Source of the DNA: Oculatellaceae cyanobacterium bins.114
GTDB lineage: Bacteria > Cyanobacteriota > Cyanobacteriia > Elainellales > Elainellaceae
Length of the DNA: 64,000 nucleotides
Assembly (NCBI GenBank): GCA_033764315.1
Contig: JANRJA010000077.1
Coordinates: 32,001 to 96,000 of the forward strand
Direction of reading: 5' to 3'
Shown here: positions 10,141 through 27,291 of the stretch, piece after piece
Layout of the letters: each line of letters begins with the position of its first letter
Position numbering within the stretch: position 1 is the stretch's first letter
Made by a program: the position numbers and the translations under genes
The notes under the pieces: generated by a model
Told to the model about the DNA's origin: nothing
The model's database searches: none
Seen by the model: the letters and a program-made list of their open reading frames with translations, nothing else

Positions 10141-10193
10141 GGCTTCCAGATTTTTTCACTTACAGCGGTTGCCGCTTGAATAAGCCACAAATT

Positions 10194-10263
10194 GCAGGGT
10201 GGGCATCGCCCACAAAGCTTCATAGTCAAGGCTTTTGGGGAATGTGGGCAGTGCCCACCCTGC
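10194..10263. repeat. Palindromic small dispersed repeat
   Basis: gcagggtgggca...tgcccaccctgc with internal gtgggca/gcccac hairpins. Confidence 0.6.
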
Positions 10264-10313
10264 CGAGAATCTGCATCCAGTCAACCCAGTTGAGCAATTA
10301 CGGGGAATTAGTT

Positions 10314-10883
10314 ATGCTGCCGACGAAAGCCAAATTATGGACGGTGGAGGACTATCACCGCATGGTTGAAGCCGGAGTTTTGACGGGGAGCGATCGCGTT
10401 GAGCTATTGGAAGGACAAATCATCGAGATGAATCCGCAACTGCCACCTCATGCAGCAACGACTCAACGCGCCTTTCGCTACCTCGATCGATTGCTGGAAA
10501 CTGTTGCTTATGTGCGGATGCAGTTGCCTGTAATGCTGAAACCCAAATCGGAACCCGAACCGGATATTGCAGTGGTTCGCATTGATGCCAATGAGTATGG
10601 CGATCGCCATCCCACGCCAGAGGATATCTTTTTGATTATCGAGGTTGCTGATTCCACATTACTGGGCGATCGTCAGCAAAAAGCTCTAATTTATGCGAAA
10701 GCTGGAATTGCTGATTACTGGATTTTGGATGTGAATGCCAAACAGGTTGATATCTTTCGGGAACCAACTCCAGAGGGCTATCAGCAGGAAGCGAGCGTTG
10801 CTGCAAACACGATGCTTGCTCCAGTCGCCTTTCCTGACATCAGCATTCCACTCAACCAGCTCTTTCTCCAAAATGCGCTTTAA
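10314..10883 (+). CDS. Uma2 family (DUF820) endonuclease-like protein
   Basis: WTVEDYHRM, RVELLEG, EPEPD, IEVADST, YAKAGIADYW. Confidence 0.92.
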   Translation: MLPTKAKLWTVEDYHRMVEAGVLTGSDRVELLEGQIIEMNPQLPPHAATTQRAFRYLDRLLETVAYVRMQLPVMLKPKSEPEPDIAVVRIDANEYGDRHPTPEDIFLIIEVADSTLLGDRQQKALIYAKAGIADYWILDVNAKQVDIFREPTPEGYQQEASVAANTMLAPVAFPDISIPLNQLFLQNAL

Positions 10884-11039
10884 ATATTTGAATGAGAATC
10901 ACCCTCAAACGGTGCAAGGGCGATCGCGGTTTCATCGATTCGCTAGCTATTAAATTTCACTTAGTCCGCAATGATGAAGTCTGAAACGCTCATCTCGTTC
11001 AAGAAATTTCACTTAGTTCACAAACAGGAAGATACCTTA

Positions 11040-11159
11040 GTACTGCTTTTCACAGATAGGGTTCGGAAATAAAATCAAGGGGGTGTGGAGGCTACGGCCC
11101 CAGCCAGGGGTCTCACCCCTGCCCCCCAAATTCCCCCCCCTATTTACGACGAGTTGTAC
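11040..11159. mobile_element. MITE family B copy 1 (120 bp), TTA target duplication
   Basis: Highly similar to 22860-22979; gtac...gtac ends with imperfect inverted repeats; flanked by tta on both sides. Confidence 0.8.
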
Positions 11160-11187
11160 TTAGCAATTTAATGAGAATTGTTGACTC

Positions 11188-11201
11188 GTAAACTCTGATA
11201 C
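11188..11201 (+). promoter_or_regulatory. Putative NtcA-binding site
   Basis: GTA-aactctga-TAC matches GTA-N8-TAC; a TAN3T element (TATTGT, 11226-11231) lies 24 nt downstream; upstream of a transport/catabolic operon. Confidence 0.55.
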
Positions 11202-11297
11202 AGAATCTTCTGGGTTAGAAATCCATATTGTGTAGCTAAAGCAATCATTTATTAGGGATAACTTGGCGTGGTTATTCCCTACCAATAGTCCCTTTTG

Positions 11298-11339
11298 GGG
11301 GTGTCAGCGCAATCTGTGCTGGCACCCCTTATTGTTTTT
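11298..11339 (+). terminator. Terminator-like hairpin in the operon leader
   Basis: 13-bp stem (with 2 G-U pairs) ggggtgtcagcgc/gtgctggcacccc followed by ttattgttttt, just before ATG 11354. Confidence 0.55.
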
Positions 11340-11353
11340 AGCAGGACGCTGAT

Positions 11354-12238
11354 ATGGTGCCATTTCAGTTACAACCAGAGTCAACTTTCACGTTTCCGAC
11401 AGGCTATCGGTGTGCTGTTTTGTTGTCGTGGGATATGGATGCTGAGTCACCCTATCTGGCCGCTGATCCGCGCAATGCTCACCATTTGGGAGCGTTGTCA
11501 GATGGGGTCTATGGGGCAACCCAAGGATTACGACATATTCTGCATTTGCTGCGTCATTACAGCTTACCTGCCACTTTCTTTGTTCCGGGTTTGACAGCCG
11601 ATCGCCACCCTAAAGTCGTCGAACAGATTTTAGCAGCGGGTCATGAAGTAACTCATCATGGCTACTCGCACCAAAACGTCTTGTTGATGACAGAGGAGGA
11701 GGAAGAAGAGGACTTGGTCAAAGGCATTGAGGCACTGCGGCGATTGACAGGCACGATGCCCTTGGGATGGCGATCGCCCAGTTATGGCATTCGTCCTCAC
11801 ACGTTGCGATTGCTGGCGAAGTATGGATTTCGCTATGACAGCAGCCTTTTGGATGATGAGGTGCCTTACTTAATGCGCTTACCAGAGCGAGATATTGTGC
11901 AGTTGCCGATCAACCCGGCATTGGATGACTGGCAATATTTCAACGTGACGATGTTCCCTGATATCTCTGGCACAGTGTGCGCAGGGGAGGAGGTGTTGCA
12001 TATCTGGCGAGCCGAGTTTGAAGCCCTGTATGACGTTGGGGGGTGTTTTGTGTTGACCATGCATCCTCACCTGACCGGACGACCTAGCCGCATTAAAATG
12101 CTGAGTCGCTTAATTGAGCACATGCAATCGTTTTCGGGAGTCTGGTGGTCAACCGCCCGTGACCTCGCTGACTACACGCTAAATCAAGCTCAGTCACATG
12201 CAGTGATTCGGGATCCTCTCCAACTGGCCGTTACGTAA
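11354..12238 (+). CDS. Polysaccharide deacetylase family protein (CE4, PuuE/HpPgdA-like)
   Basis: SWDMDAE, ATFFVPG, HHGYSH, GWRSPS, YDSS, LDDW, TMHPHLTGRPSR. Confidence 0.88.
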   Translation: MVPFQLQPESTFTFPTGYRCAVLLSWDMDAESPYLAADPRNAHHLGALSDGVYGATQGLRHILHLLRHYSLPATFFVPGLTADRHPKVVEQILAAGHEVTHHGYSHQNVLLMTEEEEEEDLVKGIEALRRLTGTMPLGWRSPSYGIRPHTLRLLAKYGFRYDSSLLDDEVPYLMRLPERDIVQLPINPALDDWQYFNVTMFPDISGTVCAGEEVLHIWRAEFEALYDVGGCFVLTMHPHLTGRPSRIKMLSRLIEHMQSFSGVWWSTARDLADYTLNQAQSHAVIRDPLQLAVT

Positions 12239-12285
12239 AACGATTCATGGATAGGGGTTCTTTTCTCAATGGTATGGGGCGAGTT

Positions 12286-13218
12286 ATGCATCAGATTTCA
12301 CTCTATTTAGAAGAGTTTTTGTGGTATCACCACTTAGGTTTATTAGCGGCGTTAGAGAGTCAGGCATTTGCAGATCAAGGGCTGACGGTGAAATTAGTCT
12401 GTCCAGAGTATCACACACAAGGCTTAGACAAAGTTGCCAGGGGCGAAGCAGACTTTGCCCTCTCAGAACCGATTCACACATTGCCGTTGCAAGTGCAAGG
12501 AAAACTCGTAGTGGCGATCGCCCAATTGTTTGAGTTGCAGGGCAGCAGCGTCATGGCACGAGCCGACAGAGTCAAAACCGCTGCCGATTTTGCCGGAAAA
12601 CGGTTAGGTTATCCGACGGCTCCCAGCCCTAATGGTCCGGCCATTTTGCGGCAAGTCGCTGACTCCCAGGGTGTGGTGCTAGATCCAAAGAGTATGCAGC
12701 GAGTGGTGATTGGCAGCAATTTGATTAGTGCATTAGAGCGAGATGCCGCTGATATCGTATTGGTCACGGCACAACACAGCATTTTATTGGCGCAGCAAAA
12801 GCGACTGCCCGTCACCCTTTTTTCCACTGAAGCCGCCGGGATTCCCAGTTTTGGTCACAACGTGTTAGTGACTCGCCAAGCGGTAATGGATACGAAGCCT
12901 GATCTGATTCAGCGACTGCTAAAGGCGATCGCCCACGGCACTCAACGGGTGCAAACCGATTGGGCCTATGCCCGTGCACTTGCCCAAAAGCATATTGCCT
13001 TTCCCGTTGAATCCGGTGAAGCCTTTCTTCAGCAGACGTTACCTGTGCTGACAGCAAACTTGCAACAACCCTCAACCCTATGGCAGCGCGTGCAGCACTG
13101 GATGCATGAAACCGGTTTGCTTCGCCAAACGATTTCAACCGAACGCGTATTCACCAATGAATTTGCGTTGCAGGTGTCATCAACGGAGCATTTTGTCTCA
13201 AGCCCATCAACCCTTTGA
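12286..13218 (+). CDS. NMT1/THI5-like substrate-binding-fold protein without a signal peptide
   Basis: FADQGLTV, GEADFALSEPIHTL, DFAGKRLGY, C-terminal VFTNEF; no hydrophobic leader. Confidence 0.75.
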   Translation: MHQISLYLEEFLWYHHLGLLAALESQAFADQGLTVKLVCPEYHTQGLDKVARGEADFALSEPIHTLPLQVQGKLVVAIAQLFELQGSSVMARADRVKTAADFAGKRLGYPTAPSPNGPAILRQVADSQGVVLDPKSMQRVVIGSNLISALERDAADIVLVTAQHSILLAQQKRLPVTLFSTEAAGIPSFGHNVLVTRQAVMDTKPDLIQRLLKAIAHGTQRVQTDWAYARALAQKHIAFPVESGEAFLQQTLPVLTANLQQPSTLWQRVQHWMHETGLLRQTISTERVFTNEFALQVSSTEHFVSSPSTL

Positions 13219-13266
13219 TGGGAAAGGTGTTGGTTAATTCACTTTTGATTCTGAGGAGCACTTTTT

Positions 13267-14163
13267 ATGGATCGTCGTCATTTCCTACAGTTCTTTTTAG
13301 TCGGTGTTGGATTGGTGGCCTGCCAAACCACGACCACAACAGAGAGCAGCCCCAGTCCTGATGCGACAGCTAGCCCGACCGCTGGCAGTCAAGATGCATT
13401 AGATGAGATCAAAGCACGGGGCAAGATGATCGTTGCCATTGACCCAACCTTTGCACCGTTTGAATACACTGATGCCAGTGGCAAAATCATTGGCTACGAT
13501 CCAGCGATTTTAGAAAAAATAGCTCAAAGTTTGGAAGTCGAGATCGAATACCAACAGATGGCATTCTCTGGCATTATTCCTGGTTTGATTGCAGGCTCCT
13601 TTGACTTCACAGCGAGTGCTTTGTCTGTAACCGCAGAACGAGCACAAAAAATTGATTTCACCATTCCGATCGCAGAAGGAGTGAATGTTGTGTTGAAGCG
13701 AGCCGATGACACTTCAATCACCAGCAGCGATCCAGCATCATTGGCAGGCAAGCGATTAGGGGTTAAGGTCAACACCCAACCTGAACAAGTGATGAAAGCC
13801 ATCAGCGATGAATTGGTGGCACAGGGCAAACCCGCGATCGAGTTTCTCAGTATTGACACCGTAGAGCAAACCATTTCAGCCCTAGCCACAAAGCGGATTG
13901 ACTTTGTAGTAGACGATCAGTTGGTATTGGCGCAGGTGGTGCGCGAACGCCCGGAAGCCAAACTCGAAATTGTCGGTCCGATTGGCCCTAAAACCTACAT
14001 TTCCTGGGGCACAAACAAGAGTGATCCCAAACTCAACGCCTATCTCAACGAGCAGATCAAAGCCCTAAAGACCGACGGCACCTTGAGCAAACTGCAAGCA
14101 GAATATTTTTATGGCATCACCTTTGATGCCTTACCGGAAGCAGATTTTGTCCCTGCGGCTTAA
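13267..14163 (+). CDS. Polar amino acid ABC transporter substrate-binding lipoprotein
   Basis: MDRRHFL twin-Arg leader with lipobox LVAC; FAPFEY, IIGYD, RAQKIDFT, LKTDGT. Confidence 0.9.
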   Translation: MDRRHFLQFFLVGVGLVACQTTTTTESSPSPDATASPTAGSQDALDEIKARGKMIVAIDPTFAPFEYTDASGKIIGYDPAILEKIAQSLEVEIEYQQMAFSGIIPGLIAGSFDFTASALSVTAERAQKIDFTIPIAEGVNVVLKRADDTSITSSDPASLAGKRLGVKVNTQPEQVMKAISDELVAQGKPAIEFLSIDTVEQTISALATKRIDFVVDDQLVLAQVVRERPEAKLEIVGPIGPKTYISWGTNKSDPKLNAYLNEQIKALKTDGTLSKLQAEYFYGITFDALPEADFVPAA

Positions 14164-14315
14164 GCTCTCCCTTACAAAGAGGCAATTTAGTATCCCGTAG
14201 AGTGCCACGCACCAATTGCTTGGTATTTTCATTTCTGGAAATCGCCTTAGCAGTCGGCGTTCTTAAGAACTCCGACTGCTGCAACCCAACCTGTTTCAAC
14301 CCGATCCTGTTTTCT

Positions 14316-14978
14316 ATGGAAGAACTTGTTAGCCTCCAAGAATCCTTGCCCCAATTGCTCACCGGGGCGATCGTTACAGTGCAACTGACCCTATGTTGTG
14401 TAGTAGTCAGCCTTTGCATGGGGATTGCCTCTGTCGCTTTACAACTCTCTCGGTTGCCATTGGGTTATGGGTTGAGTCGGGTTTATGTCAGCATCATGAG
14501 GGGCACACCGTTGCTCGTGCAACTCTTTGTTGTCTTTTTTGGGCTACCGTTAATCGGTCTGCAAGGTCAAGCTTTTGCCTCAGCCGTGTTAGCGATCGGG
14601 TTAAATAGCGGTGCCTATGTGACGGAGATTTTGAGGGCATCTATTCTTGCGATTCCACAAGGGCAAGTAGAGGCTGCACGAACGGTGGGCATGTCTACTC
14701 TACAAATTTGGCAACGGCTGATTTTGCCCCAAGCCTTGGTGATGAGTCTCCCAGCACTAACCAACGAGTTCACTATCGTCTTGAAATCAACGCCGTTAGC
14801 ATCGGTGGTGGCGGTCACGGAATTAACCTTTACCGGGCAACTGATTGTCTCACGCACCTTTCGCCCTACGGCTGTGTTGCTAGCTGTGGCAGGTGGATAT
14901 GTGATCGTGTCTCTGACATTTTCACAGTTTTCACGTTGGTTAGAACGATACTTTGCTGAGTATAAGTTAAGTGCTTAG
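14316..14978 (+). CDS. Polar amino acid ABC transporter permease
   Basis: RGTPLLVQL, GAYVTEILR, GQVEAA, LKSTPLASV. Confidence 0.92.
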   Translation: MEELVSLQESLPQLLTGAIVTVQLTLCCVVVSLCMGIASVALQLSRLPLGYGLSRVYVSIMRGTPLLVQLFVVFFGLPLIGLQGQAFASAVLAIGLNSGAYVTEILRASILAIPQGQVEAARTVGMSTLQIWQRLILPQALVMSLPALTNEFTIVLKSTPLASVVAVTELTFTGQLIVSRTFRPTAVLLAVAGGYVIVSLTFSQFSRWLERYFAEYKLSA

Positions 14979-14990
14979 GAGGCGATCGCT

Positions 14991-15647
14991 ATGGATTGGG
15001 TGTTAATGCTAAAAAGCATCCCATTATTAGTCAATGGTTTAGGTTGGACTATCGTTATCTCAGGATTGGGAATGATGTTAGCCATGATCATGGGAATCGG
15101 TTTAGTGATCATGCGGCGATCGCCCATTCCACTGTTCCGATTTTTATCGCAGTGCTACACAGAAATTATTTTAGGAGTCCCAATTTTAGTCTTGCTGTTT
15201 GTGATTTTCTTCGTATTGCCCAACTTTGGCATTGTCATCGATCCACTCCCCGCTGGACTCTTAACCCTGATGTTGCACTACTCTCCCTATATCGCTGAAG
15301 TGATTCGAGGAGCACTCGATGCAGTTCCCAAAGGGCAGATTGAAGCCGGTCGAGCGATTGGCATGGCGCGTCATGAAATTGTGCAACGCATTGTCTTGCC
15401 TCAGGCGATCGGGGTGATGTTGCCACCCTTAACCGGACAGTTTATTGGACTGATTAAAGACTCTGCCATCTTGTCGGTGATCTCGGTCGCAGAACTCACC
15501 TTTGTTGCCAAACAGGTGATCTCTCGAACCTATGCGCCATTTGAAATCTACATTCTCATCGCCATTGGTTATTGGGTTTTAACCTTTGTGTTAGAGCTGG
15601 CTCTACGCAAATTAGAAACCCGTTTTACTGCTTACCGTTATGGGTGA
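14991..15647 (+). CDS. Polar amino acid ABC transporter permease
   Basis: YIAEVIRG, GQIEAG, LIKDSAILSVI. Confidence 0.92.
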   Translation: MDWVLMLKSIPLLVNGLGWTIVISGLGMMLAMIMGIGLVIMRRSPIPLFRFLSQCYTEIILGVPILVLLFVIFFVLPNFGIVIDPLPAGLLTLMLHYSPYIAEVIRGALDAVPKGQIEAGRAIGMARHEIVQRIVLPQAIGVMLPPLTGQFIGLIKDSAILSVISVAELTFVAKQVISRTYAPFEIYILIAIGYWVLTFVLELALRKLETRFTAYRYG

Positions 15648-15652
15648 TTGTC

Positions 15653-16471
15653 ATGAGTTTCATCAATCCTGCCATTCAAACGGCTATCCAGACCGAAGAT
15701 CTCTACAAATCCTTTGACCAACTGGAGGTGTTGCGGGGTGTGAATCTCACGGTCATGCCCGGAGAGGTGGTTTGCATTTTAGGCCCGTCGGGTTCTGGCA
15801 AATCTACGCTGCTGCGCTGTCTCAACTGGCTCTCGCCTCCCACTCGTGGTCGTGTGTGGATTGGTGGGCGACGGTTGGGGGTCAAAGAAACGGCTGAAGG
15901 GAGAATGGTGCCGCAATCAGATGCCGAACTGCGAACGATGCGAAGCCAGATTGGGATGGTGTTTCAGGGGTTTAACCTGTGGTCACACCGGACGGCGTTA
16001 GAGAATGTGATGGAAGGACCGCTCATTGTTCGCAAGTTGAACAAAAAAGTAGCCAAAGAACGGGGCATGTATTTTTTGGAGCAGGTCGGTTTGATCGATA
16101 AATGGAATGTTTATCCATCGAAGTTGTCAGGGGGACAACAACAACGGGTGGCGATCGCCCGTGCCCTGGCAATGGAACCAGAAATCTTGCTATTTGATGA
16201 ACCCACCAGTGCCCTTGATCCAGAGCTAGTGGGGGAAGTGTTAGCAGTCATGCGCGACTTGGCTCTAAAACACACCACAATGTTGGTGGTGACACACGAG
16301 ATCGGGTTTGCTGCTGAAGCGGCTGATCGCATTGTGTTTATGGATCAAGGGCAAATTGTAGAAGAAAACACCCCCAAAGAATTTATCCGCAATCCTCAAG
16401 AAGAGCGATCGCGCCAATTTCTTAATCAATTTCTTAGCCGCAATCCGTTTAGCTATATCGCTAACGTCTGA
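15653..16471 (+). CDS. Polar amino acid ABC transporter ATP-binding protein
   Basis: GPSGSGKST, LSGGQQQR, FDEPTSALDPE, VTHE. Confidence 0.95.
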   Translation: MSFINPAIQTAIQTEDLYKSFDQLEVLRGVNLTVMPGEVVCILGPSGSGKSTLLRCLNWLSPPTRGRVWIGGRRLGVKETAEGRMVPQSDAELRTMRSQIGMVFQGFNLWSHRTALENVMEGPLIVRKLNKKVAKERGMYFLEQVGLIDKWNVYPSKLSGGQQQRVAIARALAMEPEILLFDEPTSALDPELVGEVLAVMRDLALKHTTMLVVTHEIGFAAEAADRIVFMDQGQIVEENTPKEFIRNPQEERSRQFLNQFLSRNPFSYIANV

Positions 16472-16483
16472 AAGAACTGGTTT

Positions 16484-17515
16484 ATGGAACTCGCCTTTAA
16501 CACCCTTGATCTCGATCTGCTAGACGACTTGAGCATTTCCTACGAATCAGTCAACACGCTCAACAATGTCATTATTTACCTCACCGCAAGGGGGCAAACC
16601 GGTCTGGGGGAAGCCTCTCCCCATGCGGCTTATGGCGAAACTCAAGAGACCACCATTGCAGTTCTCAACTATCTCAAACCAACACTGGAGGCGATCGCCG
16701 ATCCGTTTCAGGTCATCGATATTTTGGCTCGGCTAGACGACCTGATTGAGGGACACGCTGCCACCAAAGCCGCTATCGACATGGCGTTGTATGACCTGAT
16801 AGGCAAACTGCTCGGCGTTCCCCTCTATCAACTGTTGGGGTTAAATCCTGAGAAAACGACGCATCTCACCTACACCATCGGCATTGACACAGTCGATCGC
16901 ATGGTGGAAAAGGCGATCGCCGCCAGCCATTACAAATATCTCAAAGTTAAGCTAGGAAGCTCTTATGACAAAGACATCATCACTGAGATTGCCAGTGCAA
17001 CGCCTGCGATTTTGCGGGTGGATGTCAATGGGGGATGGGAAGCCCGTCACGCCATCCGCTTTATCAACGAGGTGTTGGTGCACCATCCGGTGGAGTTTGT
17101 GGAGCAACCCCTCGCGCCAGGAGACTTTCGCGGCATGAAACTGCTGCATACCGCATCAGCGTTACCGATCGTGCTCGACGAAAGCATCAGCGATATGAAT
17201 AGCATTTTGCGCCATGCCGATTGTGTTGATGGGGTGAATATCAAATTGATGAAATGTGGAGGTATTCGCAATGCTCTAAAGATGATCCACACTGCACGAG
17301 CACTGGGTCTCAAGGTGATGCTAGGTTGCCGAGTCGAAACATCATTAGCGATCACAGCCGCTGCCCATTTAACACCCCTGGTCGATTTTGCCGACCTAGA
17401 TTTACACCTGCTCGTGGCCGATGATCCCTTTATCGGAGCCACCCTAGACAACGATGGCAAGTTTGTTTTGCCAACCGCTCCCGGTTTGGGGGTACAGGTA
17501 AAACCAGTGCCCTAG
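16484..17515 (+). CDS. Dipeptide epimerase family enzyme (enolase superfamily, MLE subgroup)
   Basis: GLGEA, IDMALYDL, KVK, D-V-N, EQP, DES, NIKLMKCGG, DLD. Confidence 0.88.
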   Translation: MELAFNTLDLDLLDDLSISYESVNTLNNVIIYLTARGQTGLGEASPHAAYGETQETTIAVLNYLKPTLEAIADPFQVIDILARLDDLIEGHAATKAAIDMALYDLIGKLLGVPLYQLLGLNPEKTTHLTYTIGIDTVDRMVEKAIAASHYKYLKVKLGSSYDKDIITEIASATPAILRVDVNGGWEARHAIRFINEVLVHHPVEFVEQPLAPGDFRGMKLLHTASALPIVLDESISDMNSILRHADCVDGVNIKLMKCGGIRNALKMIHTARALGLKVMLGCRVETSLAITAAAHLTPLVDFADLDLHLLVADDPFIGATLDNDGKFVLPTAPGLGVQVKPVP

Positions 17516-17534
17516 AGCCTGTCTGCTTGTTCTG

Positions 17535-17641
17535 CTCGTTCCTCAGGCTCTGCCTGGGAACATCAATCTAGAGGCTCTGCCTCTTTTTAGCTCAGGTGAC
17601 AGAGCTGCCCACAAGTATTTTTAGCCAGAGGCTAGAAACGA
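17535..17641. repeat. Degenerate cyanobacterial dispersed repeat (aggctctgcct family)
   Basis: ctcgttcctcaggctctgcctgggaa...gaggctctgcctc...gaaacga. Confidence 0.55.
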
Positions 17642-17668
17642 AAATGAACCCTTACACGGAGTACAACC

Positions 17669-18916
17669 ATGACTGAACTTGCGCGTTACGGCAGCCCTTA
17701 TAACTGGATGTCTGACACCGTTAAAAACTCAAACAAACCAGAGACTGTCATCATCAACGACCTGACTCTGCAAGGGGATGCCGAAGAGATGGCAGGCGTA
17801 CAAATTGGTGAAGCCGACAAGATCGCGATCGCCACTCGATTGAGCGAATTGGGTGTTCCACGGATGTCGGTGTTGGGCTTTTCGCCGCGCCCGCCAAAGG
17901 AGGAAATCAAAATTGTCGAAAAAATCTTGGCATTAGATTTGCCGATGCAATTTGGGTCATTTGTCAAATCGCCAGAAGAAATTGATATTGCTGCCCAGAT
18001 TGGCTTATGGGGCGTGACGATTTTGATTTGGGTGAATGACACGACCCTACCTCAAGGTAAAACTGGGGCTGATGTGCTCGATCGCGTCCAATATCTGACC
18101 GAATACGCCAAATCAAAAGGACTGCACACCTGTTTTATGGCAATGGATGCCACTCGCACGCGCCTGGAGTTTTTGCAAGCCGCCATCAAAACCGCTGAAC
18201 CCTATTGCGATGAAATTACGATCGCTGATTCCTTGGGTGTTGCTTCTCCCTATGGCTTTCAATACTTGATTCAAACCGTCTGTAGTTGGACAAATCTGCC
18301 CATTCAGGTGCATTGTCATAACCATTCATCTATGGCGGTCGCTAATGCGATGGGGGCAATTCTCGGTGGTGCGACTGTGATTCACGCCACCGTCAATGGC
18401 ATGGGCGAACTGGCGGGCTTGCTGCCTCTAGAAGAGTTAGCCGTTGCCCTATCGATGCACCTGAATGTTGCTACAGGCATTAAGTTAGAGAAACTCAAAG
18501 CCATGTCAGAACTGGTCGCCAAAGCCACAGGTGTTCCTGTCAACATTCAAAAACCCGTCGTGGGCGATCGCGCCTTTTGCATTCCTGAAACAGAGGAAAT
18601 TCAAGAAGCGTTGTATGCCCTAGAAGAAAAAGGGGTTTTACAAGAGAGTCTGACCTATCCCCCGGCACTGGTGGGTAATCAACTGCACATGTCAATCGGG
18701 CGACGCTGTAATGAATACACTGTTCGCTATAACCTGGGTTTGCGCGGCTGGGCAGCGGATGCAGACACCACTCAGCAGATCATTCAAGCCGTTCGAGACA
18801 TTGCCTGGGCACAAGACGGTTACTACTTGATGAGTGAAGATGAGTTTTTTGAGTTGATTCAAGCTAAGGGCTTTCAACTCACTCCGCTGCACCCCAAATA
18901 CCCCGTTGGTGTCTAG
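17669..18916 (+). CDS. DRE-TIM metallolyase superfamily protein (LeuA/homocitrate synthase-like) with atypical motifs
   Basis: NDLTLQGDAEE, IADSLG, HCHNH, TVNGMGELAG, KPVVGDRAF. Confidence 0.85.
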   Translation: MTELARYGSPYNWMSDTVKNSNKPETVIINDLTLQGDAEEMAGVQIGEADKIAIATRLSELGVPRMSVLGFSPRPPKEEIKIVEKILALDLPMQFGSFVKSPEEIDIAAQIGLWGVTILIWVNDTTLPQGKTGADVLDRVQYLTEYAKSKGLHTCFMAMDATRTRLEFLQAAIKTAEPYCDEITIADSLGVASPYGFQYLIQTVCSWTNLPIQVHCHNHSSMAVANAMGAILGGATVIHATVNGMGELAGLLPLEELAVALSMHLNVATGIKLEKLKAMSELVAKATGVPVNIQKPVVGDRAFCIPETEEIQEALYALEEKGVLQESLTYPPALVGNQLHMSIGRRCNEYTVRYNLGLRGWAADADTTQQIIQAVRDIAWAQDGYYLMSEDEFFELIQAKGFQLTPLHPKYPVGV

Positions 18917-18941
18917 TAGAGATAAGCCCCTACAAAGTATC

Positions 18942-19108
18942 TAACGTCAGTTCGGTTTAAGAGCCTAGCGAATAAATTCGCAGCTATCAGAGCGAAGTTC
19001 GCCTTCGCGAACTACGGAGAATCAAGGGTTGAGTGAACCGACCTGCGTCGGTTCAGCTCCTGTAGTTGCGGTTTTAACCGCCAAAATCCTTATCCCGAAT
19101 TCACGTTA
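18942..19108. mobile_element. MITE family A copy 3 (167 bp)
   Basis: Near-identical to copies 1 and 2; sits inside the inverted repeat taagccccta...tagggctta. Confidence 0.85.
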
Positions 19109-19136
19109 TCTAGGGCTTACCCATGTGGAAATCGGT

Positions 19137-19715
19137 TTAAGTAAAAATCTCAGCAGAAGTGAGAGCAAAGTTAGGGACTATATTGGACTGAATTTGATCC
19201 GATCCTCTATATACCTTGTCCTCATACTGTCCATCAATCCAATGACAGACGGTAATCTGTCGTTCCTTTGGGTCAATAATCCAATACTCATCAATCTCGC
19301 GGGCGGCATATTCTGTGTGTTTATAGCGATAATCGCGATCGCGGTTTGCCTTGCCGGGAGAAACAATCTCAATGACGAGTGCTGGGGGCGGCATATCACG
19401 GGTAATTGTGGCGCGGGTTGTGCCTGCTAATGCTGCTTTTGATGCTTCCGTATGGACTAACAAATCGGGTAATCGACACCGCGCCCGTCGCCCTGTAACC
19501 TCCAGTTCAGTTCCCCAGGCGACCCATGAAACGGGCAGGTGTCTGATCAGTTCTAACAGCAGTTTCCTGGCAATTTCAAGATTTTCGTCACTTTCGGGTG
19601 GCATCTCAACTAGCTCTCCATCCACCAGTTCATAACGGGTGTCGGTGCTATCGTCATAGGCGAGATACTCTTCAAAGGTGAGAGATTTAGGTTTGGATGA
19701 AGCAGTTTGGCTCAT
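19137..19715 (-). CDS. Uma2 family (DUF820) endonuclease-like protein
   Basis: LTFEEYL, YELVDG, PDL, IEIVSPG, RDYRYK, EYWIIDP. Confidence 0.92.
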
Positions 19716-19846
19716 GGGTACAATCGCCCCAAAGTGACAGGTATCACAGCAATTTTAACCAATTTTAATAAGGGTTCAGAATGCGATCGCTTTCCAGGCA
19801 GAGGGTTAGAAACGAGAGCCAACCCCTCAAGCGCAAGATGATGAGC

Positions 19847-20230
19847 TTAAATCTGAGACGTTATGACTTCAGAGTCTGCTTTTGATTTACTTCGATAGCG
19901 ACGACGCACCTGCTCACTTTTGCGTACTCCGCCTGCTGCCTCATATTCACTGCTGTTGCGACCAAACTTAGACGCAACCCCCAACAACATGTGATCTGTC
20001 AAATCTGCTAACGTCTTCTCAAACTCCAACATCTCAACATAGGTCGAATCAACACTGGCTAAAAGCTGGTTATAGAGATCTTGCTTGCGCCGCATTAACT
20101 CAATCGCCTCTAAAAAGCTAGACAGCGATCGCGAATTGCCAAAATCTAGCTCTATTCCCAGCGATTTTAACCCTGCGGCTCGACGTTCTGCTTTCTCTAA
20201 TACAGTAGATGACCGTTTCTGACGTGCCAT
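19847..20230 (-). CDS. Conserved hypothetical protein
   Basis: MARQKRSS-LEKAERRAAGLKS...LDFGN...FGRNSSEYEAAGGVRKS; recognised as a recurring cyanobacterial hypothetical family. Confidence 0.75.
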   Translation of the reverse strand: MARQKRSSTVLEKAERRAAGLKSLGIELDFGNSRSLSSFLEAIELMRRKQDLYNQLLASVDSTYVEMLEFEKTLADLTDHMLLGVASKFGRNSSEYEAAGGVRKSEQVRRRYRSKSKADSEVITSQI

Positions 20231-20379
20231 GTCTTTTCTCAATCAACGATAGATTTAATGTACCCAGTTGCTTTTGTAGGCTCTGCCAGTAAAAGTAATG
20301 AAAAATGGATGGGCGATCGCTGTTATGTCGAAATGACTCGGTGATTTTTCTGAGACTCCTGCCTAAATGAATGGCTCAA

Positions 20380-20547
20380 GCGGTAACTGAGTTCTCAAGT
20401 GGGGCAAAGGACCTCTCCTTGAGAGCAACTGAGTTCTTCGTAGGGGTTAATGAGTTCTCCTTGAGAGCAACTGAGTTCTCAAGTGGGGCAAAGGACTTCT
20501 CCTTGAGAGCAACTGAGTTCTTCGCAGGGGTCAACGAGTTCTCATTT
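20380..20547. repeat. Tandem array of 8 x 21 bp with 42- and 84-bp higher-order structure
   Basis: Units alternate agagcaactgagttct..... and gggg.....ga.ttctccttg. Confidence 0.9.
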
Positions 20548-20556
20548 AACCCCCAT

Positions 20557-20927
20557 TCAAACCCCCTGTGCGACTATTCCAGATCCCCGGTTTCTAGTGA
20601 TGGGAATCAGATCAAAGTTGGGTGGAATTCCAACTAATTGCTGCACTCCTTCTGCTGTCAGAGTCTGAGCTTGCACAGCAAACACCGCTTGTAACTCCTC
20701 AGAGGCTTGAGCGATCGCCCTTACCTTTCTGAGATATCGCTTACTGATCTGTTCCCAATTAAACTCATCGGGCAAACGAGGCAAATTTAGACTATTCCAG
20801 GTGTTTGCTAGTAGTGAAGTGCCCAAAGGAATCAGCTACGCTGCATCGCCTCAACTCGCTATGAAAAGTGGTAGCGCAGTTGGCTGCAAAAGTCCGGAAT
20901 TTGTTTGAAATACTCAATCCAGCTCAT
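20557..20927 (-). pseudogene. Possible decayed transposase remnant (ISAs1-like N-terminus)
   Basis: ATG 20927 gives MSWIEYFKQIPDF then a stop at 20859; a downstream frame has LNLPRLP; resemblance is from memory only. Confidence 0.3.
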
Positions 20928-21159
20928 CCTAGAAAACGGAACCTGTCAATCGAGCTTCACAAATAGAACCTAAAGAACGAGTTAATCGTTGTTCTTTAGA
21001 ACTTTGTCCAGGATAAATATACAAGAAAAATTATGACGAAATAGACTGATCAAACCAAGAAATAACGATAATAGAGTTGTCTTGGATGCAATTGTATCTT
21101 GTTCTCACTACAGCTAGGTCTAGCCACGTTGTCTTTACACCTCAAGGAGACTAACGATC

Positions 21160-22758
21160 ATGAAACCTACAAGTGTGCAGGTTACAACAACCAGTGATTA
21201 TGACGGCGATGGGAGTATTGATTCCCGTTTTTTAACGACGACCACCTATGACCGTCAAGGGCATGAGTTAACATCCACTTCTGAGAACGATTATGATGGC
21301 GACGGGAGTATTGATTCTTATGAGTCAACTACTAGAACCTATGACCGTTAAGGAAATGAATTAACTGATCTTCATATCAATGATTATGATGGCGATGGGA
21401 GTATTGATTCTCATTACCTAACAACGAATACCTACGACCGTCAAGGGCATCTATTAACCTCTGTTTTTGAGGTTGATGCGGGTGGCAACGGCAGCATTGA
21501 GTTTCGTGAGTCAACCACTAAAACCTACGACCGTCAAGGGCATGAATTAACGTCTATTGTGGAGAACGATGATGGTGGCGACGGGAGTATTGATTCTTAT
21601 GAGTCAACTACTAGAACCTATGACCGTCAAGGGCGTGAATTAACTGTTCTTTATATCAATGATTATGATGGCGATGGGAGTATTGATTCGCATCACTTAA
21701 CAACAAATACCTATGACCGTCAAGGGCATCTGTTAACCTCTGTTTTTGAGAGTGATGAGAGTGGCAACGGCAGTATTGATTTTCGTGAGTCAACCACTAG
21801 AACCTACGACCGTCAAGGGCATGAATTAACGTCTGTTACTATCAGTGACAATGATGGCGATGGAGACACCGACAGCTATGCTTCAACGACAAAGACCTAT
21901 GACCGCCAAGGGCATTTGTTAACCTCTGTTTCGGCTTCTGATTATGAAAACAATGGCAATATTGATTTTCGGGCGTCAACAACGAAAACCTATGACCGCC
22001 AAGGGCATGAGTTAACGTTCATTTATGTAGCTGATTATGACGGGGATGGGCAAACCGATTTTACTCAATCAATCACGAAGACCTATGACCGTCAAGGTCG
22101 TGAGTTGACGGTCGTTGATGCAAGCGATGATAACGGCGATGGGCACATCAACTACAGTTCTTCAACGACAAATACCTATAACCGTCAGGGTCGTCAGTCA
22201 ATAGTCGTTTTTGAAGGTGATTATAACGACGACAGTTTAATTGACTACCATAACACCACGACTACGACTTACGATCGCCAAGGTCGTGAGCTAACGGTCG
22301 TTTCTGAACATGATGATGACAGAGATGGGAGAATTGAATCTCGTTACTCAACCCTGAAGACGTATGACCGTCAGGGTCATCCGTTAACTATGGTTAATGT
22401 TCAAGATTCTAATGGCGATGGGATTACTGATTATCGTGACTCAACGATTAACACCTATGACCGCCAAGGTAATCAACTAACTGCCATTTTTACATCTGAT
22501 TCTAATGCTGATGGAAAAATGGATTATCGGGTTGAGACAATCTTTACCTATCAAGAGCTGCACAATCATAGCAGAAGTAGTTCGAGTAGAGTGACTCCTG
22601 ATATTAGAACGATGAGCTTAGGTCAAGCAGGTCAATCTAGACCAGCATTGTTCGGTCATGAATTGTCAGATCAACTCGCTTCACTCGATCCTTTTCATAA
22701 TCGACAGGGTATCGACCACTTCTCCTCGGTGGATGCAAATCTCAGAACGAGGTTTTAA
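21160..22758 (+). pseudogene. 31-aa repeat protein (TYDRQG plus DxDGDG) interrupted by one in-frame TAA at 21349-21351
   Basis: Track ORFs 21160-21351 and 21559-22758 share a frame; 14 TY(D/N)RQG units at exact 93-bp spacing from 21244 to 22453; AAGGAG RBS upstream. Confidence 0.85.
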
Positions 22759-24059: not shown

Positions 24060-24200
24060 GTTCTTATCCAATTTTGAGCTGTATTTGTCAATAAAGCATG
24101 ACAATTAAGACAACGTTAACAGCCCAAGGAAAGATCTTAGAGGAGGAGGGAGGGGTTTGGCACTTGCAAGTCCAGATCCCCGGTTTTTGGTGATGGCTCA

Positions 24201-25037
24201 TCACAAAGGACGATGACCCTTAACAAACGATCGCACTTCGTCAGCGACAACCTCAGGTGCCGTGTGCACAAGATTAGCTCCGGGGTGTTGATGAACCATA
24301 GCATAAGGGGCATTGGCATATCCCTGATTCAACAGAGCGATCGCCCGTTCATCGTCTTCCCCTTGCAACAGCAGCAGCGGTACTTTGAGCCAACTCAAGC
24401 GATCGTGTACATATTCGGCTTGAATTTCAGCTTTGCGGCGATTAAATAACAACTGACAGGCAGCGGGATATTGTTTTAGCAACCGCACCTCTTGTAACCA
24501 CTGCTGAATGCAATCGGTCTGTCCTAAGAGGCGAGCTAAGGGAGAGAGCGATCGCTCCGAGATACCCGCAAGGGGTCGCAATAACCAAACCACAAGAGGA
24601 CTATGAGTTAACCACCACCATCGTTGGTGCGCTCTACCTCGCACAGGCAGCCCTTCGGCTCCTAATAACACCAACCCCTCAACCTGATGGGGATAGCGGA
24701 GCGCATAGCTAGCCGCAACCCAACCCCCAACCCCTTGTCCAATCAAATAAACCTGTCGCAACTTCAGGCTGTCTAAATAGTTGGCCAGACACTCTACTTC
24801 AAACTCAATGGAGTAATGAACACGAGGGCGATCGGATTCGCCAAACCCTAACAGATCAGGAACAAAGCAGTGAAAGTCATGCCCTAACTGCTCAATCACA
24901 CGAATCCATTCACTGCCATCACTCCAGGAGTTATGCAGAAATACTAAAACCGTACCTCGCCCCAACTCCCGCCAAAAAATCTGACCCTGTGATAGTGAAA
25001 GACGAGAGTTGCGAATGGGTAGAGGCATGGTGAGCAC
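24201..25037 (-). CDS. Alpha/beta fold hydrolase-like protein
   Basis: VFLH, PDLLGFGES, YALRYP..VEGLVL; nucleophile elbow reads GQGVGG. Confidence 0.85.
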   Translation of the reverse strand: MLTMPLPIRNSRLSLSQGQIFWRELGRGTVLVFLHNSWSDGSEWIRVIEQLGHDFHCFVPDLLGFGESDRPRVHYSIEFEVECLANYLDSLKLRQVYLIGQGVGGWVAASYALRYPHQVEGLVLLGAEGLPVRGRAHQRWWWLTHSPLVVWLLRPLAGISERSLSPLARLLGQTDCIQQWLQEVRLLKQYPAACQLLFNRRKAEIQAEYVHDRLSWLKVPLLLLQGEDDERAIALLNQGYANAPYAMVHQHPGANLVHTAPEVVADEVRSFVKGHRPL

Positions 25038-25149
25038 GAGGGAAAGAGAGTGAGTTAGGGAGAGAGAAGTCAGAAGCGGGTCACTTGGGAAAATGCTCTA
25101 GGGGTCACGGTCAATCGCTCAAGCACAGGTGACTCTTGACCCCTGCCAC

Positions 25150-25605
25150 TTATGCCAATGTTGTTAGACCATTGAAATAGTCTTGTAACTGGCGATCGTG
25201 ATCGTGGGAGAGGCTACCAATAGGGATATCAGCGGGCGCAAATGCCTTTACATCTTTGATCTCAAGGGTGTCTTGCACTTGCATGGGGCCCTCGACAGCG
25301 GCCTCAATGACGACACAAATAGAGTGAAATCGAGGATCGCGATCGGGAGCCGAATAGATCCCCACCAACCGTCGAATTGCCAACAGTTTTAGTCCTGTTT
25401 CTTCTTCTAACTCTCGCTTGACCGTGGTGGGAATATCTTCTCCCCAGTTCACCATGCCACCAGGAACTCCCCAGAGACCATTATCTCGACGTTGAATCAA
25501 CACAATCCGACCATCTGGCAAGACGGGAATAATGCTTGTCCCTGTAATCGGATGACGCAGGATAAGCCCGATCGCCGCTTGTGCAAACTTCACCAATTGA
25601 ATCAT
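25150..25605 (-). CDS. NUDIX hydrolase
   Basis: PGGMVNWGE...KRELEEETGL Nudix box; YSAPDRDPR. Confidence 0.92.
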   Translation of the reverse strand: MIQLVKFAQAAIGLILRHPITGTSIIPVLPDGRIVLIQRRDNGLWGVPGGMVNWGEDIPTTVKRELEEETGLKLLAIRRLVGIYSAPDRDPRFHSICVVIEAAVEGPMQVQDTLEIKDVKAFAPADIPIGSLSHDHDRQLQDYFNGLTTLA

Positions 25606-25810: not shown

Positions 25811-26281
25811 TCAAGCTGAGAGGGCCGCTAAATCCGCCAAAATTTGAGCAGCATGATTGTCTGGCTTTACTTTCAAATACACCTTGGCAATCTTACCCTC
25901 TGGATCAATTAAAAACGTATTGCGGCTGATGCCCATGTATTCTTTACCCATGAACTTCTTTAAGCCATAGCTTTCATAGGTGGTTGACATCTGACCATCA
26001 GCATCGGTCAACAGGGGAAATGGTAAATCAAATTTCGTTGAAAACTTTGTATGAGACTTGGCATCATCGGTGCTAACGCCTAACACAACAACATCTTGAG
26101 ATTGGTAATTGGTATAAGCATCCCGAAATCCACAGGCTTCTGTAGTGCATCCAGGGGTGTTGTCGCGGGGGTAAAAGTAAAGCACAACCCACTTGCCACG
26201 AAAATCAGATAACTGAACTGTGTTGCCGTTTCCATCAGGAAGGCTAAAATCAGGGGCAATATCGCCAGGTTGAAGTGCCAT
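25811..26281 (-). CDS. bcp: Peroxiredoxin BCP/PrxQ
   Basis: YFYPRDNTPGCTTEACGFRD. Confidence 0.95.
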   Translation of the reverse strand: MALQPGDIAPDFSLPDGNGNTVQLSDFRGKWVVLYFYPRDNTPGCTTEACGFRDAYTNYQSQDVVVLGVSTDDAKSHTKFSTKFDLPFPLLTDADGQMSTTYESYGLKKFMGKEYMGISRNTFLIDPEGKIAKVYLKVKPDNHAAQILADLAALSA

Positions 26282-26409
26282 TGGTAAACCCTTTAAGAAG
26301 CTGTGAGTATTCAAGACCAATTCTGATTGTATGACTTGATTGCTCATTCGGGTATGGGTAGGAAGGAGTGGAGATGGAAGCGGGCGTTGACAAGTGTTTT
26401 AGCTGGTTT

Positions 26410-26480
26410 CTATAGCAGTCCCATATTAGTGGTGAGGCGAGCGGCTTGTGAGAGGCGCACCCCATTTGGGATTGCTATAG
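26410..26480. mobile_element. MITE family C (71 bp)
   Basis: Terminal inverted repeats ctatagcagtccca...tgggattgctatag; related end at about 2172-2200 and degenerate copy at 4119. Confidence 0.65.
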
Positions 26481-26544
26481 AAGGCAAACCGCAGCTTATA
26501 GTGAATCTCATGCACCGACTGACTAACAGGTGTACGGCTACTCT

Positions 26545-27291
26545 ATGCAAATCGCTCAGTTATTGATCAAGCCTTCTCTGGGCAAGGCGATGTGCCCTTG
26601 TGAAACGTTGGAGTTAAGGCGAGGTTATGGCATTGCGGACGATGCTAATGCGGTCATCGGTAGTCCGCGTCAGATTTTGCTCCTTGACGCTTTAACTCTC
26701 GATCGCTTTGAGCTCAAGCCAGGACAATTACGAGAAAATATTGTCTTAGCTGGCATGGAGCACCCATTTCAATCGGGACAGGTTTTGCAACTAGGTTCAA
26801 CAGCGTTAGTGCGGTTAACAACGAGCTGTGAACCCTGTGCTTTTTTGAATCAAATTCGCCCAGGTTTGGCCCAAACCATCCGCCACGACCGAGGGTTTTT
26901 AGGGATGGTCATCAAAAGTGGACAAATCAGAATTGGAGATTGGGTGGCTCTTACGGCTCATCAACTTCCAGTGATCCCAGAGACAACACGAGGCAAATTT
27001 GATGAGTTTATCGCCCGCATTCCAATCGGAAAGGTTGTCTCAACACCCAATTTACTACTGGCATTGGGGTTAACACAGAGCTATTACCGAACGATTCCTG
27101 CATTGTTAAAGAAGTCGCCCATGCATTTACCAGTTCATCGTATTGTCGCCGCAGATGGGAGTTTGATGACAAAGCACATTCCCGATCAATGTAGAGCATT
27201 ACAAGCAGAGGGTGTAAAAGTAATGCATAACCGAGTCAGCCCTGACTATTTTTGGGAGGCGATCGCATTTCATGAACTAGGTGATTTTTGA
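26545..27291 (+). CDS. MOSC domain fused to an alkyltransferase-like (MGMT/Atl) DNA-binding domain
   Basis: RQILL, LRENI, CEPC, RGFLGMV..SGQIRIGD (MOSC); IPIGKVVS, PVHRIV..DG, LQAEGV (Atl-like). Confidence 0.8.
   Translation: MQIAQLLIKPSLGKAMCPCETLELRRGYGIADDANAVIGSPRQILLLDALTLDRFELKPGQLRENIVLAGMEHPFQSGQVLQLGSTALVRLTTSCEPCAFLNQIRPGLAQTIRHDRGFLGMVIKSGQIRIGDWVALTAHQLPVIPETTRGKFDEFIARIPIGKVVSTPNLLLALGLTQSYYRTIPALLKKSPMHLPVHRIVAADGSLMTKHIPDQCRALQAEGVKVMHNRVSPDYFWEAIAFHELGDF

Follow-up and report, generated by a model that had tools for sequence, protein, structure and literature searches.

Organization of the operon

The stretch of DNA analysed here, referred to as the window, comprises 64,000 nucleotides of contig JANRJA010000077.1 (positions 32,001 to 96,000; assembly GCA_033764315.1) from Oculatellaceae cyanobacterium bins.114, and the subject of this study is a candidate nitrogen-scavenging operon within it that pairs an ABC importer with an atypical DRE-TIM protein. 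Eight co-oriented open reading frames (ORFs), named g1 to g8, were found on the + strand at window positions 11354-18916, and their families were assigned with Pfam and NCBIfam. The first two encode a CE4/polysaccharide deacetylase family protein (g1, 11354-12238; PF01522, 73.7 bits against a cut-off of 23.1) and a cytoplasmic NMT1/THI5-like protein of an isolated subfamily (g2, 12247-13218; PF09084, 122 bits). They are followed by the four components of an importer, namely an SBP_bac_3 solute-binding lipoprotein (g3, 13267-14163), two ABC permeases (g4, 14202-14978, and g5, 14991-15647; 90.9 and 87.1 bits to HEQRo_perm_3TM, TIGR01726, against a cut-off of 42.2) and an ABC ATPase (g6, 15653-16471). 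The last two genes encode an MLE-subgroup racemase/epimerase with MR_MLE_N and MR_MLE_C domains, kin of L-Ala-D/L-Glu epimerase (AEE) and DgcA (g7, 16484-17515), and an atypical "R-less" DRE-TIM protein with the homocitrate synthase fold (g8, 17669-18916; HMGL-like TIM barrel, PF00682, 137.6 bits against a cut-off of 29). The ORF of g6 was listed from a TTG at 15572, and the ATG codons at 14316 for g4 and 15653 for g6 are probably the true starts, with which the lengths of the homologues agree. The intergenic gaps from g1 to g8 were 8, 48, 38 or 152, 12, 5, 12 and 153 nt, so the preliminary description of eight co-oriented, mostly tightly spaced genes of these families was borne out. No product of the eight genes reached a curated equivalog cut-off in NCBIfam.

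The block was also found, as described earlier, between MITE-like repeats and two Uma2-family genes. The upstream repeat (about 130 bp, ~11036-11163) had 65 blastn matches in its own genome and the downstream repeat (about 170 bp, ~18942-19108) had 147, neither being assigned a strand, and the Uma2 genes lie at 10176-10883 on the + strand (PF05685, 115.5 bits) and at 19137-19715 on the - strand (113.3 bits). The 153-nt spacer between g7 and g8 (17516-17668) contains a short terminator-like hairpin (17570-17584, + strand) and a short dispersed repeat with nine blastn matches in the genome, including its own copy; the spacer measures about 70 nt in the related locus L006 and about 120 nt in the related locus L032.

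Promoter and leader RNA

The operon is preceded by the NtcA-type box GTAAACTCTGATAC (11188-11201, + strand) and, exactly 22 nt after it, by the -10-like hexamer CATATT (11224-11229, + strand), which places the inferred transcription start at about 11236. The box is the sole GTAN8TAC in the window. Since shuffled sequence averaged 5.2 such motifs, the count by itself was not significant, and it is the position and the conservation of the box that carry weight. The box, the 22-nt spacing and the hexamer (CATACT in L032, CATATT in L006) recur in front of both orthologues of the operon, that of L032 and that of the much more diverged L006, and are thus present in all three leaders. In canonical NtcA-activated promoters, as described in PMC3898017, the box is centred near -41.5 and is followed by a -10 box. 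We infer from this arrangement that the operon is under NtcA control. The preliminary description is supported to the extent that a conserved promoter of the NtcA type precedes the genes for an importer dependent on a solute-binding protein (SBP) and for predicted cytoplasmic enzymes.

Next comes a two-hairpin leader of about 105 nt (window 11236-11340; 1434-1537 in L032; 4421-4520 in L006). Hairpin P1 (11253-11281, + strand) carries the conserved loop TTGGCG(TG) and was folded by RNAalifold from the three loci, with compensatory changes in L006, and hairpin P2 (11297-11329, or 11297-11339 for the whole element, + strand) forms a terminator-like stem of 15 pairs, with a T-rich tail after it, directly before the start codon of g1. 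The fold was far more stable than those of shuffled sequences (z = -4.8), and across P1 and P2 seven of the 25 pairs changed compensatorily in the three-sequence alignment, which represents two independent lineages. No Rfam family reached its gathering score anywhere in the window, and the sub-threshold matches in 10800-19800 were at chance level. A covariance model built for the leader gave a single match in its own genome and, in 150 other genomes of the phylum, three weak matches of which none was convincing. The best covariance match (L096, E 1.9e-5) was rejected, as it is a terminator hairpin beginning at the end of an ORF and not a homologue. Because the model found the leader only in the lineage of the operon, the element is not a widespread riboswitch and gives no clue to a regulon. 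From its form, P2 is a candidate attenuator, and the leader as a whole could be an attenuator or riboswitch-like element, or a small NtcA-dependent RNA with read-through into the operon.

Conservation and portability of the operon

With g8 used as the anchor, two scans yielded 26 genome loci and 53 metagenome loci. In close relatives the operon was found to be conserved as a unit: in L032, whose g8 is 92% identical, the full set of eight is present in unchanged order with amino acid identities of 84-94%, and L006, which comes from the same family as the genome of the window, keeps seven genes at 74-84%. L006 and L007 (about 80%) carry the genes from the NMT1 gene through g8; the CE4 gene is missing from L006, where IS605-type remnants lie upstream. 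Nucleotide homology between the window and L032 was confined to 11163-18911, starting just past the upstream MITE-like repeat, so the promoter, the leader and the genes are common to the two loci and the flanks are not.

In the relatives a ninth gene was observed. In L032 (9516-10511), L033 (6161-7153) and L006 (11337-12257), the next gene after g8, and co-oriented with it, encodes a PfkB-family kinase; the kinases of L032 and L006 are 63% identical to each other and gave weak matches to fructoselysine 6-kinase and 5-dehydro-2-deoxygluconokinase. No orthologue of this kinase was found in the genome of the window, where the downstream MITE-like repeat occupies its place, and in the proteobacterial clusters only one marginal match was obtained (L010, 33% over 76 aa).

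The same-genus genome G413 has no such block at the syntenic site (L114, C19 4473-5784), where gyrB and the downstream genes are kept in order and an ion-channel-family gene replaces the segment Uma2-MITE-operon-MITE-Uma2 (window ~10143-21000). A relative of g8 (E <= 1e-60) was present in none of 400 other sampled genomes of the phylum. Given its absence from that site in G413 and from these 400 genomes, and its other flanks in the 92% identical relative, the block is a sporadic, portable islet and not an old resident of this locus. A quick maximum-likelihood tree was computed from 41 rows, made up of the window and 40 non-redundant high-scoring segment pairs with a minimum length of 370 aa; loci that were redundant or partial did not enter it. 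The four cyanobacterial rows grouped together in it (SH-aLRT 100), within a family whose other members are mostly proteobacterial. The HIP1 sites (GCGATCGC) had been read as a sign of long residence in a cyanobacterium. Eleven sites were confirmed in 11354-18916, and their density (1.45/kb vs 1.61/kb genome-wide) is typical of the genome, which fits long residence in HIP1-bearing cyanobacteria, though not at this locus.

Farther downstream, an ORF of 399 aa at window 21010-22758 is internally repetitive, with many offset blastn matches to its 559-aa counterpart in G413, and it gave only a weak match to a type IX secretion system sorting domain.

The R-less DRE-TIM protein g8

The AlphaFold2 model of g8 had a mean confidence (pLDDT) of 92.7, with values below 50 only in the loop 36-39 and at the C-terminus, and it matched homocitrate synthase (HCS) 6KTQ over its full length with a template modelling (TM) score of 0.78 in Foldseek, followed by structures of MAMS, HCS, CMS and isopropylmalate synthase (IPMS). 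Searches of the ESM Atlas with g8 returned only generic HMGL/IPMS-like clusters. Against the NCBIfam models, g8 scored below all cut-offs (234.6 vs 517, 206.8 vs 484.75 and 198.3 vs 462.9), and neither its scores nor its motif residues are those of an isopropylmalate, homocitrate or citramalate synthase.

The active site was compared in an alignment of 20 members of the g8 clade with the LeuA paralogues of the same genome and other canonical relatives. Residues D31, E39, H215 and H217 of g8 are invariant in the 20 clade members and align with the LeuA paralogues, and the DATR motif is retained. The position of the Arg in the D-R-E signature is occupied by Gln in the window (Gln35) and by Glu in the clade consensus, and a one-residue insertion accompanies the change. 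Within the clade, DTTLRDGEQ has become DLTL(E/Q)GD(G/A/C)EE, with the Gln of GEQ replaced by Glu, HESGIH has become (I/V)PETEEIQ with a 9-residue insertion, and HxHND has become HxHNH or HxHNT. According to PMC11532901, the Arg of the signature is invariant and catalytically essential in DRE-TIM enzymes, the Gln of GEQ is required, the His is a key residue for enolization, and aldolase-type members also need the enolate-stabilizing Arg. On these motifs g8 would not be a conventional Claisen or aldol enzyme of the superfamily. The C-C cleavage assigned to it in the preliminary description was not a safe inference and becomes doubtful, since both the superfamily Arg and the catalytic His motif are gone. 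The strongly acidic site suggests a cationic or N-H-rich substrate, or an extra metal. No publication on such a DRE-TIM clade was found in a limited literature search, which covered neither supplements nor subscription papers.

The importer g3-g6

The SBP_bac_3 protein, the two HEQRo_perm_3TM permeases and the ATPase identify g3-g6 as a PAAT-family importer. By direct reading, the N-terminus of g3 (MDRRHFLQ...LVAC) looks like a twin-arginine translocation (Tat) signal with a lipobox. The invariant Arg of the S-x-T-x-x-R motif and the DD pair are retained in g3, and we take them to bind the carboxylate and the amino group of the ligand, respectively. Of the solved SBPs, those closest to g3 have Arg/Gln or cationic amino acids as ligands, and its solved relatives include binding proteins for nopaline and octopine.

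The accessory proteins g1, g2 and g7

The motifs SWDMD and HEVTH are present in g1, and they presumably supply the Asp and the His-x3-His of the CE4 metal site. The closest structure was the uncharacterized 3RXZ (240 bits). The assignment to PuuE/PgdA-type CE4 enzymes therefore held for the family and failed for PuuE: as a PuuE allantoinase g1 was rejected, since it scored 109.9 bits against the 424.6 of TIGR03212 and a genuine PuuE is encoded elsewhere in the genome. A paralogue of g1 with 41% identity occurs in the same genome (L104, C35 1383-11164) together with a fatty-acid-desaturase-like gene and a MarR-GNAT fusion; the divergent side of that region carries an SDR gene, genes for two SsuA/NMT1-type binding proteins, an ABC ATPase and a permease, and a xylose-isomerase-like TIM gene. 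No clear link between this context and the operon was seen.

No hydrophobic N-terminus was present in g2; its conserved domain sets in around residues 14-16, which is also the start of the L006 orthologue. It thus lacks the export signal of the periplasmic NMT1/SsuA-type binding proteins and is the signal-less THI5-like protein that had been described. THI5p has a Cys-rich CCCxC motif. The fold of the THI5-type hydroxymethylpyrimidine phosphate synthase is shared by g2, but not the Cys-rich motif, as g2 contains a single Cys and no CCC. The best solved relative, ThiY, reached only 44.8 bits. A word-indexed search of 5.8 billion proteins returned seven relatives besides g2 itself, all at least 62% identical, and among 1.84 billion representatives two clusters were found at E <= 1e-30, the next match being 31% identical.

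Alignments to 3IJI, 3JVA and DUF1611-paired paralogues showed the full MLE-subgroup set in g7 (KxK, D, E, D and K, together with the DLD motif), and the roles of these residues are assumed by analogy with the subgroup. The DLD motif is uninformative as a discriminator, since it occurs in both dipeptide epimerases and DgcA-type racemases. The equivalog scores of g7 were 196.1 vs 400 for DgcA and 160.4 vs 500 and 129.3 vs 343 for AEE. Its best solved relative was 3IJI/3IJL/3IJQ (242 bits), which we take to be BT1313 of Bacteroides thetaiotaomicron. BT1313 is presented in PMC4600125 as an L-Ala-D/L-Glu epimerase placed in cell-wall recycling. The only DUF1611 gene of the genome lies on another contig (C251), about 0.8 kb downstream of an MLE gene whose product is 41% identical to g7 (24180-25298 and 26083-26688), an arrangement as in a DgcN/DgcA-type pair.

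The importer-g8 core in other bacteria

Of the 79 loci, 76 contained a g8 relative, and these formed 50 non-redundant groups at 95% nucleotide identity. The order SBP-permease-permease-ATPase-g8 is kept in eight loci (L009-L015 and L025; seven proteobacterial and one labelled only "bacterium"), in which the identities of the core were 49-70% (SBP 54-61%, ATPase 64-68%, g8 49-59%). Of the non-redundant loci, 36 extend 900 bp or more upstream of g8, and in these the gene directly upstream was an ABC ATPase in ten, a ureidoglycolate-lyase-like gene in four, and in three, all of the cyanobacterial clade, an MLE gene with the importer before it. On the other side, where 36 loci had at least 1200 bp, a MatE gene lies directly downstream in ten and an SBP_bac_3 gene within 500 bp in four. 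Co-occurrence of the four non-transporter genes, which the preliminary description had put forward as a check, failed outside one small cyanobacterial clade, as CE4, NMT1 and this MLE are limited to it except for CE4 proteins of 39% in the distant L074 and 28% in L017. An MLE gene near g8 in Rhodobacteraceae was rejected as a sign of co-conservation; it lies about 7.5 kb off on the other strand, beside a DUF1611 gene, as a DgcN/DgcA-type pair. The importer with g8 was the sole core conserved across phyla.

The neighbours of this core recurred in kind. In L009, L012, L014 and L015 the importer is immediately preceded by genes for ureidoglycolate lyase (PF04115) and allantoicase (PF03561), and L055 has the allantoicase only. 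The four loci with a ureidoglycolate-lyase-like gene directly upstream of g8 are L016, L017, L018 and L039, and a divergent gene of this kind abuts g8 together with AstE/AspA-family and arginase-family genes in L016 and L037-L041. TauD-family genes were found in the g8 loci L018, L019 and L026, and a Paracoccaceae-type group has a set of ADI-like, GGACT, FAD-oxidoreductase and MatE genes. DUF1989, amidase and amidohydrolase neighbours recur around the clade, and OTCase-like, ADI/DDAH-like, creatinase-like and CE4 genes surround the 34-36% relatives of g8. What these neighbours have in common is chemistry that frees urea or carbamoyl groups from compounds of the ureido or guanidino type.

Two further loci were observed. 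In an Immundisolibacterales-type locus, L011 (and L047), a gene of the PEP-mutase/isocitrate-lyase superfamily lies directly downstream of g8 (L011 11348-12385), which may hint at the carbon skeleton handled. In L074 (6961-9952), which holds a 36% member, a ketol-acid reductoisomerase-family gene stands directly before g8 and a DUF1989 gene after it, with two OTCase-like genes, an ADI/DDAH-like gene and a CE4 gene (product 39% identical to g1) nearby.

Proposed function of the operon

Taken together, the locus is tentatively read as an operon that is regulated by nitrogen and scavenges an amino-acid-like compound taken up from outside, probably with a ureido, guanidino or N-acyl group, a reading that we prefer to the others without calling it probable. 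On this view the importer and g8 are the conserved core, to which g1, g2 and g7 would have been added as lineage-specific accessories, with PfkB as a further addition in the relatives. In this scheme, for which the substrate class and each enzymatic step are inferred, nitrogen stress would induce the operon through the NtcA-type promoter, and the terminator-like hairpin of the conserved leader ahead of g1 probably gates expression further. The Tat-exported lipoprotein g3, the permeases g4 and g5 and the ATPase g6 would import a small amino-acid-like compound with a carboxylate and an N-H group, most likely one that carries a ureido, guanidino or N-acyl function. The compound would be processed in the cytoplasm by the R-less metalloenzyme g8, the partner of the importer across phyla, with the help of accessories recruited in the cyanobacterial lineage, namely the metal-type CE4 amidohydrolase g1, the AEE/DgcA-like alpha-carbon racemase g7 and the cytoplasmic NMT1-fold protein g2, and its nitrogen would be set free as ammonia, urea or a usable L-amino acid. 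Of the preliminary description, the importer, the promoter and the conservation as a unit are thereby retained, and the co-conservation of four genes, the PuuE assignment, the C-C cleavage and the residence at this locus are not.

Several observations weigh against the scavenging reading. A terminator-like hairpin separates g7 from g8, and the GTAN8TAC count of the window is not above chance. The PfkB of the relatives is missing here, so the pathway may be incomplete, or the substrate may have a sugar or polyol part. For g1, g2 and g7, the roles given are guessed from the families to which the proteins belong. No ABC importer adjoins g8 in ten of the non-redundant loci, which form the MatE group. 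The source of the ureido/guanidino theme is the neighbourhood of g8 in Proteobacteria and metagenomes and not this genome, in which (at a completeness of 90.7%) neither allantoicase nor ureidoglycolate lyase was found and a complete urate-to-allantoate set is already present elsewhere.

The neighbourhood data could also be read as a ureide cluster resembling the yeast DAL cluster, in which allantoate or a related ureide would be imported, g1 would open a hydantoin-type ring, g7 would racemize an intermediate and g8 would dispose of glyoxylate in the manner of the malate synthase DAL7. The yeast cluster offers a precedent of composition, with allantoinase, allantoicase, ureidoglycolate lyase, a permease, malate synthase and a putative racemase named in PMC13751858. 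The linkage of ureidoglycolate lyase and allantoicase to the importer-g8 core in four loci agrees with this reading, as does the cluster allantoicase being the only copy in genomes G403 and G404, with a true PuuE encoded elsewhere, and the best named NCBIfam match of g1 is PuuE. That match amounted to only 110 bits against 424.6, however, and the genome has its own purine route: a genuine PuuE (548 bits) lies beside an allantoate amidohydrolase gene on C97 (L103 8277-10637), and HpxO urate hydroxylase, HIU hydrolase and OHCU decarboxylase are encoded on C51 (L105 4078-8108). The lack of allantoicase and ureidoglycolate lyase in this genome tells against a ureide cluster as well, and so does the loss from g8 of the Arg and His needed for Claisen chemistry. 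Other purine-catabolic genes were not found in the allantoicase/g8 clusters, and a true PuuE lies elsewhere in 11 of the 12 genomes that have them. Malate synthase (PF01274) was present in 8 of 16 g8-bearing genomes without a complementary pattern, so complementarity is uninformative. Allantoin itself has no carboxylate on which an MLE-type enzyme could act. On balance we regard a DAL-like function as unlikely. At the C97 locus, an allophanate-hydrolase fragment and IS630 pieces adjoin the PuuE cluster.

Salvage of a peptidoglycan-derived or D-amino-acid compound, for example a dipeptide of the L-Ala-D-Glu type or an N-acetyl-D-amino acid, is held to be unlikely to the same degree. Here import would be followed by de-N-acetylation by the CE4 protein and inversion by g7, and in the relatives PfkB would phosphorylate a sugar part. 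The relationship of g7 to 3IJI/3IJL/3IJQ and, among NCBIfam models, to the N-acetyl-D-Glu racemase DgcA agrees with such a route, CE4 is the family of the peptidoglycan deacetylases, and a PfkB gene does follow g8 in L032 and L006. Yet g7 remained below all equivalog cut-offs (196 vs 400; 160 vs 500), a DUF1611 and MLE pair is already present elsewhere in the genome, and the partners of the importer-g8 core in other phyla are ureide and guanidino enzymes rather than cell-wall enzymes. Importers of dipeptides and muropeptides, moreover, normally rely on other SBP families.

Still less probable is that the block is a decaying or incomplete remnant, an islet acquired horizontally that lost its ninth gene to the insertion of the MITE and Uma2 elements and no longer encodes a complete pathway. 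In favour of this, the sequence shared with L032 runs exactly to where g8 ends, with a MITE in the place of PfkB, G413 has no such block at the syntenic site, the block is flanked by MITE-like elements at either end, and the g7-g8 spacer holds a short dispersed repeat. All eight frames are nevertheless intact at 84-94% amino acid identity to L032, the promoter and leader are nearly unchanged between the two, and the HIP1 density and GC content are near those of the genome. The least credible alternative is an opine or Amadori-type conjugate of an amino acid and a sugar, taken up by the ABC importer and, in relatives, phosphorylated and then cleaved by an aldolase-like g8; the PfkB gene after g8 in L032/L033 and L006 and the nopaline- and octopine-binding relatives of g3 speak for it, but the kinase is missing here and in the proteobacterial clusters, the operon has no deglycase or oxidase partner, and g8 lacks the enolate-stabilizing Arg that aldolase-type DRE-TIM enzymes need (PMC11532901).

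Significance of the R-less clade

NtcA-controlled operons for uptake and catabolism are already known. What is new here is an R-less DRE-TIM clade with its own ABC importer, a link that is seen across phyla, together with the cyanobacterial accessory set and a conserved leader without an Rfam match. The claim that no described pathway combines these genes stood up, as the limited literature search found no pathway with this gene set and, among the matches listed, no paper joining allantoicase or ureidoglycolate lyase with HMGL-like proteins; the novelty rests on this search together with the absence of a curated equivalog and of a close solved structure.

It is possible, though doubtful, that the clade (DLTL[EQ]GD.EE, PETEEIQ) represents a new DRE-TIM reaction class, a metalloenzyme with an acidic, charge-inverted active site for cationic or N-H-rich acids of the ureido or guanidino type supplied by its dedicated importer, that its pairing with the importer forms a widespread, so far undescribed route to organic nitrogen in marine and soil Proteobacteria and a few cyanobacteria, and that in the latter the route is placed under NtcA and a new attenuator or riboswitch-like leader. 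If the core pair handles a ureido or guanidino compound, it would add a new enzyme activity to a superfamily whose catalytic Arg counts as invariant, and marine and soil bacteria and some cyanobacteria would have an additional route to nitrogen from dissolved organic matter. If the substrate is ordinary, the operon would be one more sporadically distributed islet for the utilization of amino acid derivatives. The cyanobacterial operon is a clean test case, with putative NtcA control and a conserved unclassified leader RNA, and it shows a catabolic core gaining different accessory enzymes by lineage.

Comparison with known systems

Allantoin and ureide clusters (yeast DAL1-2-3-4-7/DCG1 and bacterial puuE-alc-allA) resemble the operon in combining a transporter, an amidohydrolase-like ring opener, a racemase and a relative of a Claisen synthase, and the proteobacterial orthologues of the importer-g8 core are joined to allantoicase and ureidoglycolate lyase genes; in contrast, g1 is not PuuE, g8 is not malate synthase, and the purine clusters of this genome are separate. 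With the L-Ala-D/L-Glu epimerases YkfB, YcjG and BT1313 and with DgcA, g7 shares the catalytic set, its best matches being the DgcA and AEE models and 3IJI, and it differs from the DgcN-DgcA pathway in standing within an ABC/DRE-TIM operon instead of being paired with DUF1611 (DgcN).

The importer has the four components of the PAAT importers of the HisJQMP, Ehu, Tcy and Occ types, with g6 scoring 322 bits to TcyN and 304 bits to EhuA, but none of its components reached an equivalog cut-off, and the best match of g3 was the Lys/Arg/Orn subfamily model at 137 vs 256 bits. Among the homocitrate-synthase-type DRE-TIM enzymes, HCS 6KTQ (120 bits) and MAMS 6E1J are the best solved relatives of g8, which shares with them the TIM barrel with a C-terminal subdomain and the Asp and HxH metal ligands, and departs from them in lacking the LeuA_dimer regulatory domain, the superfamily Arg and HESGIH. 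Finally, the promoter is like the canonical NtcA-activated promoters in that GTAN8TAC, the 22-nt spacing and the -10-like hexamer put the box near -41.5, and it is unlike them in that the RNA here begins with a structured leader, about 105 nt long, which includes a terminator-like hairpin.

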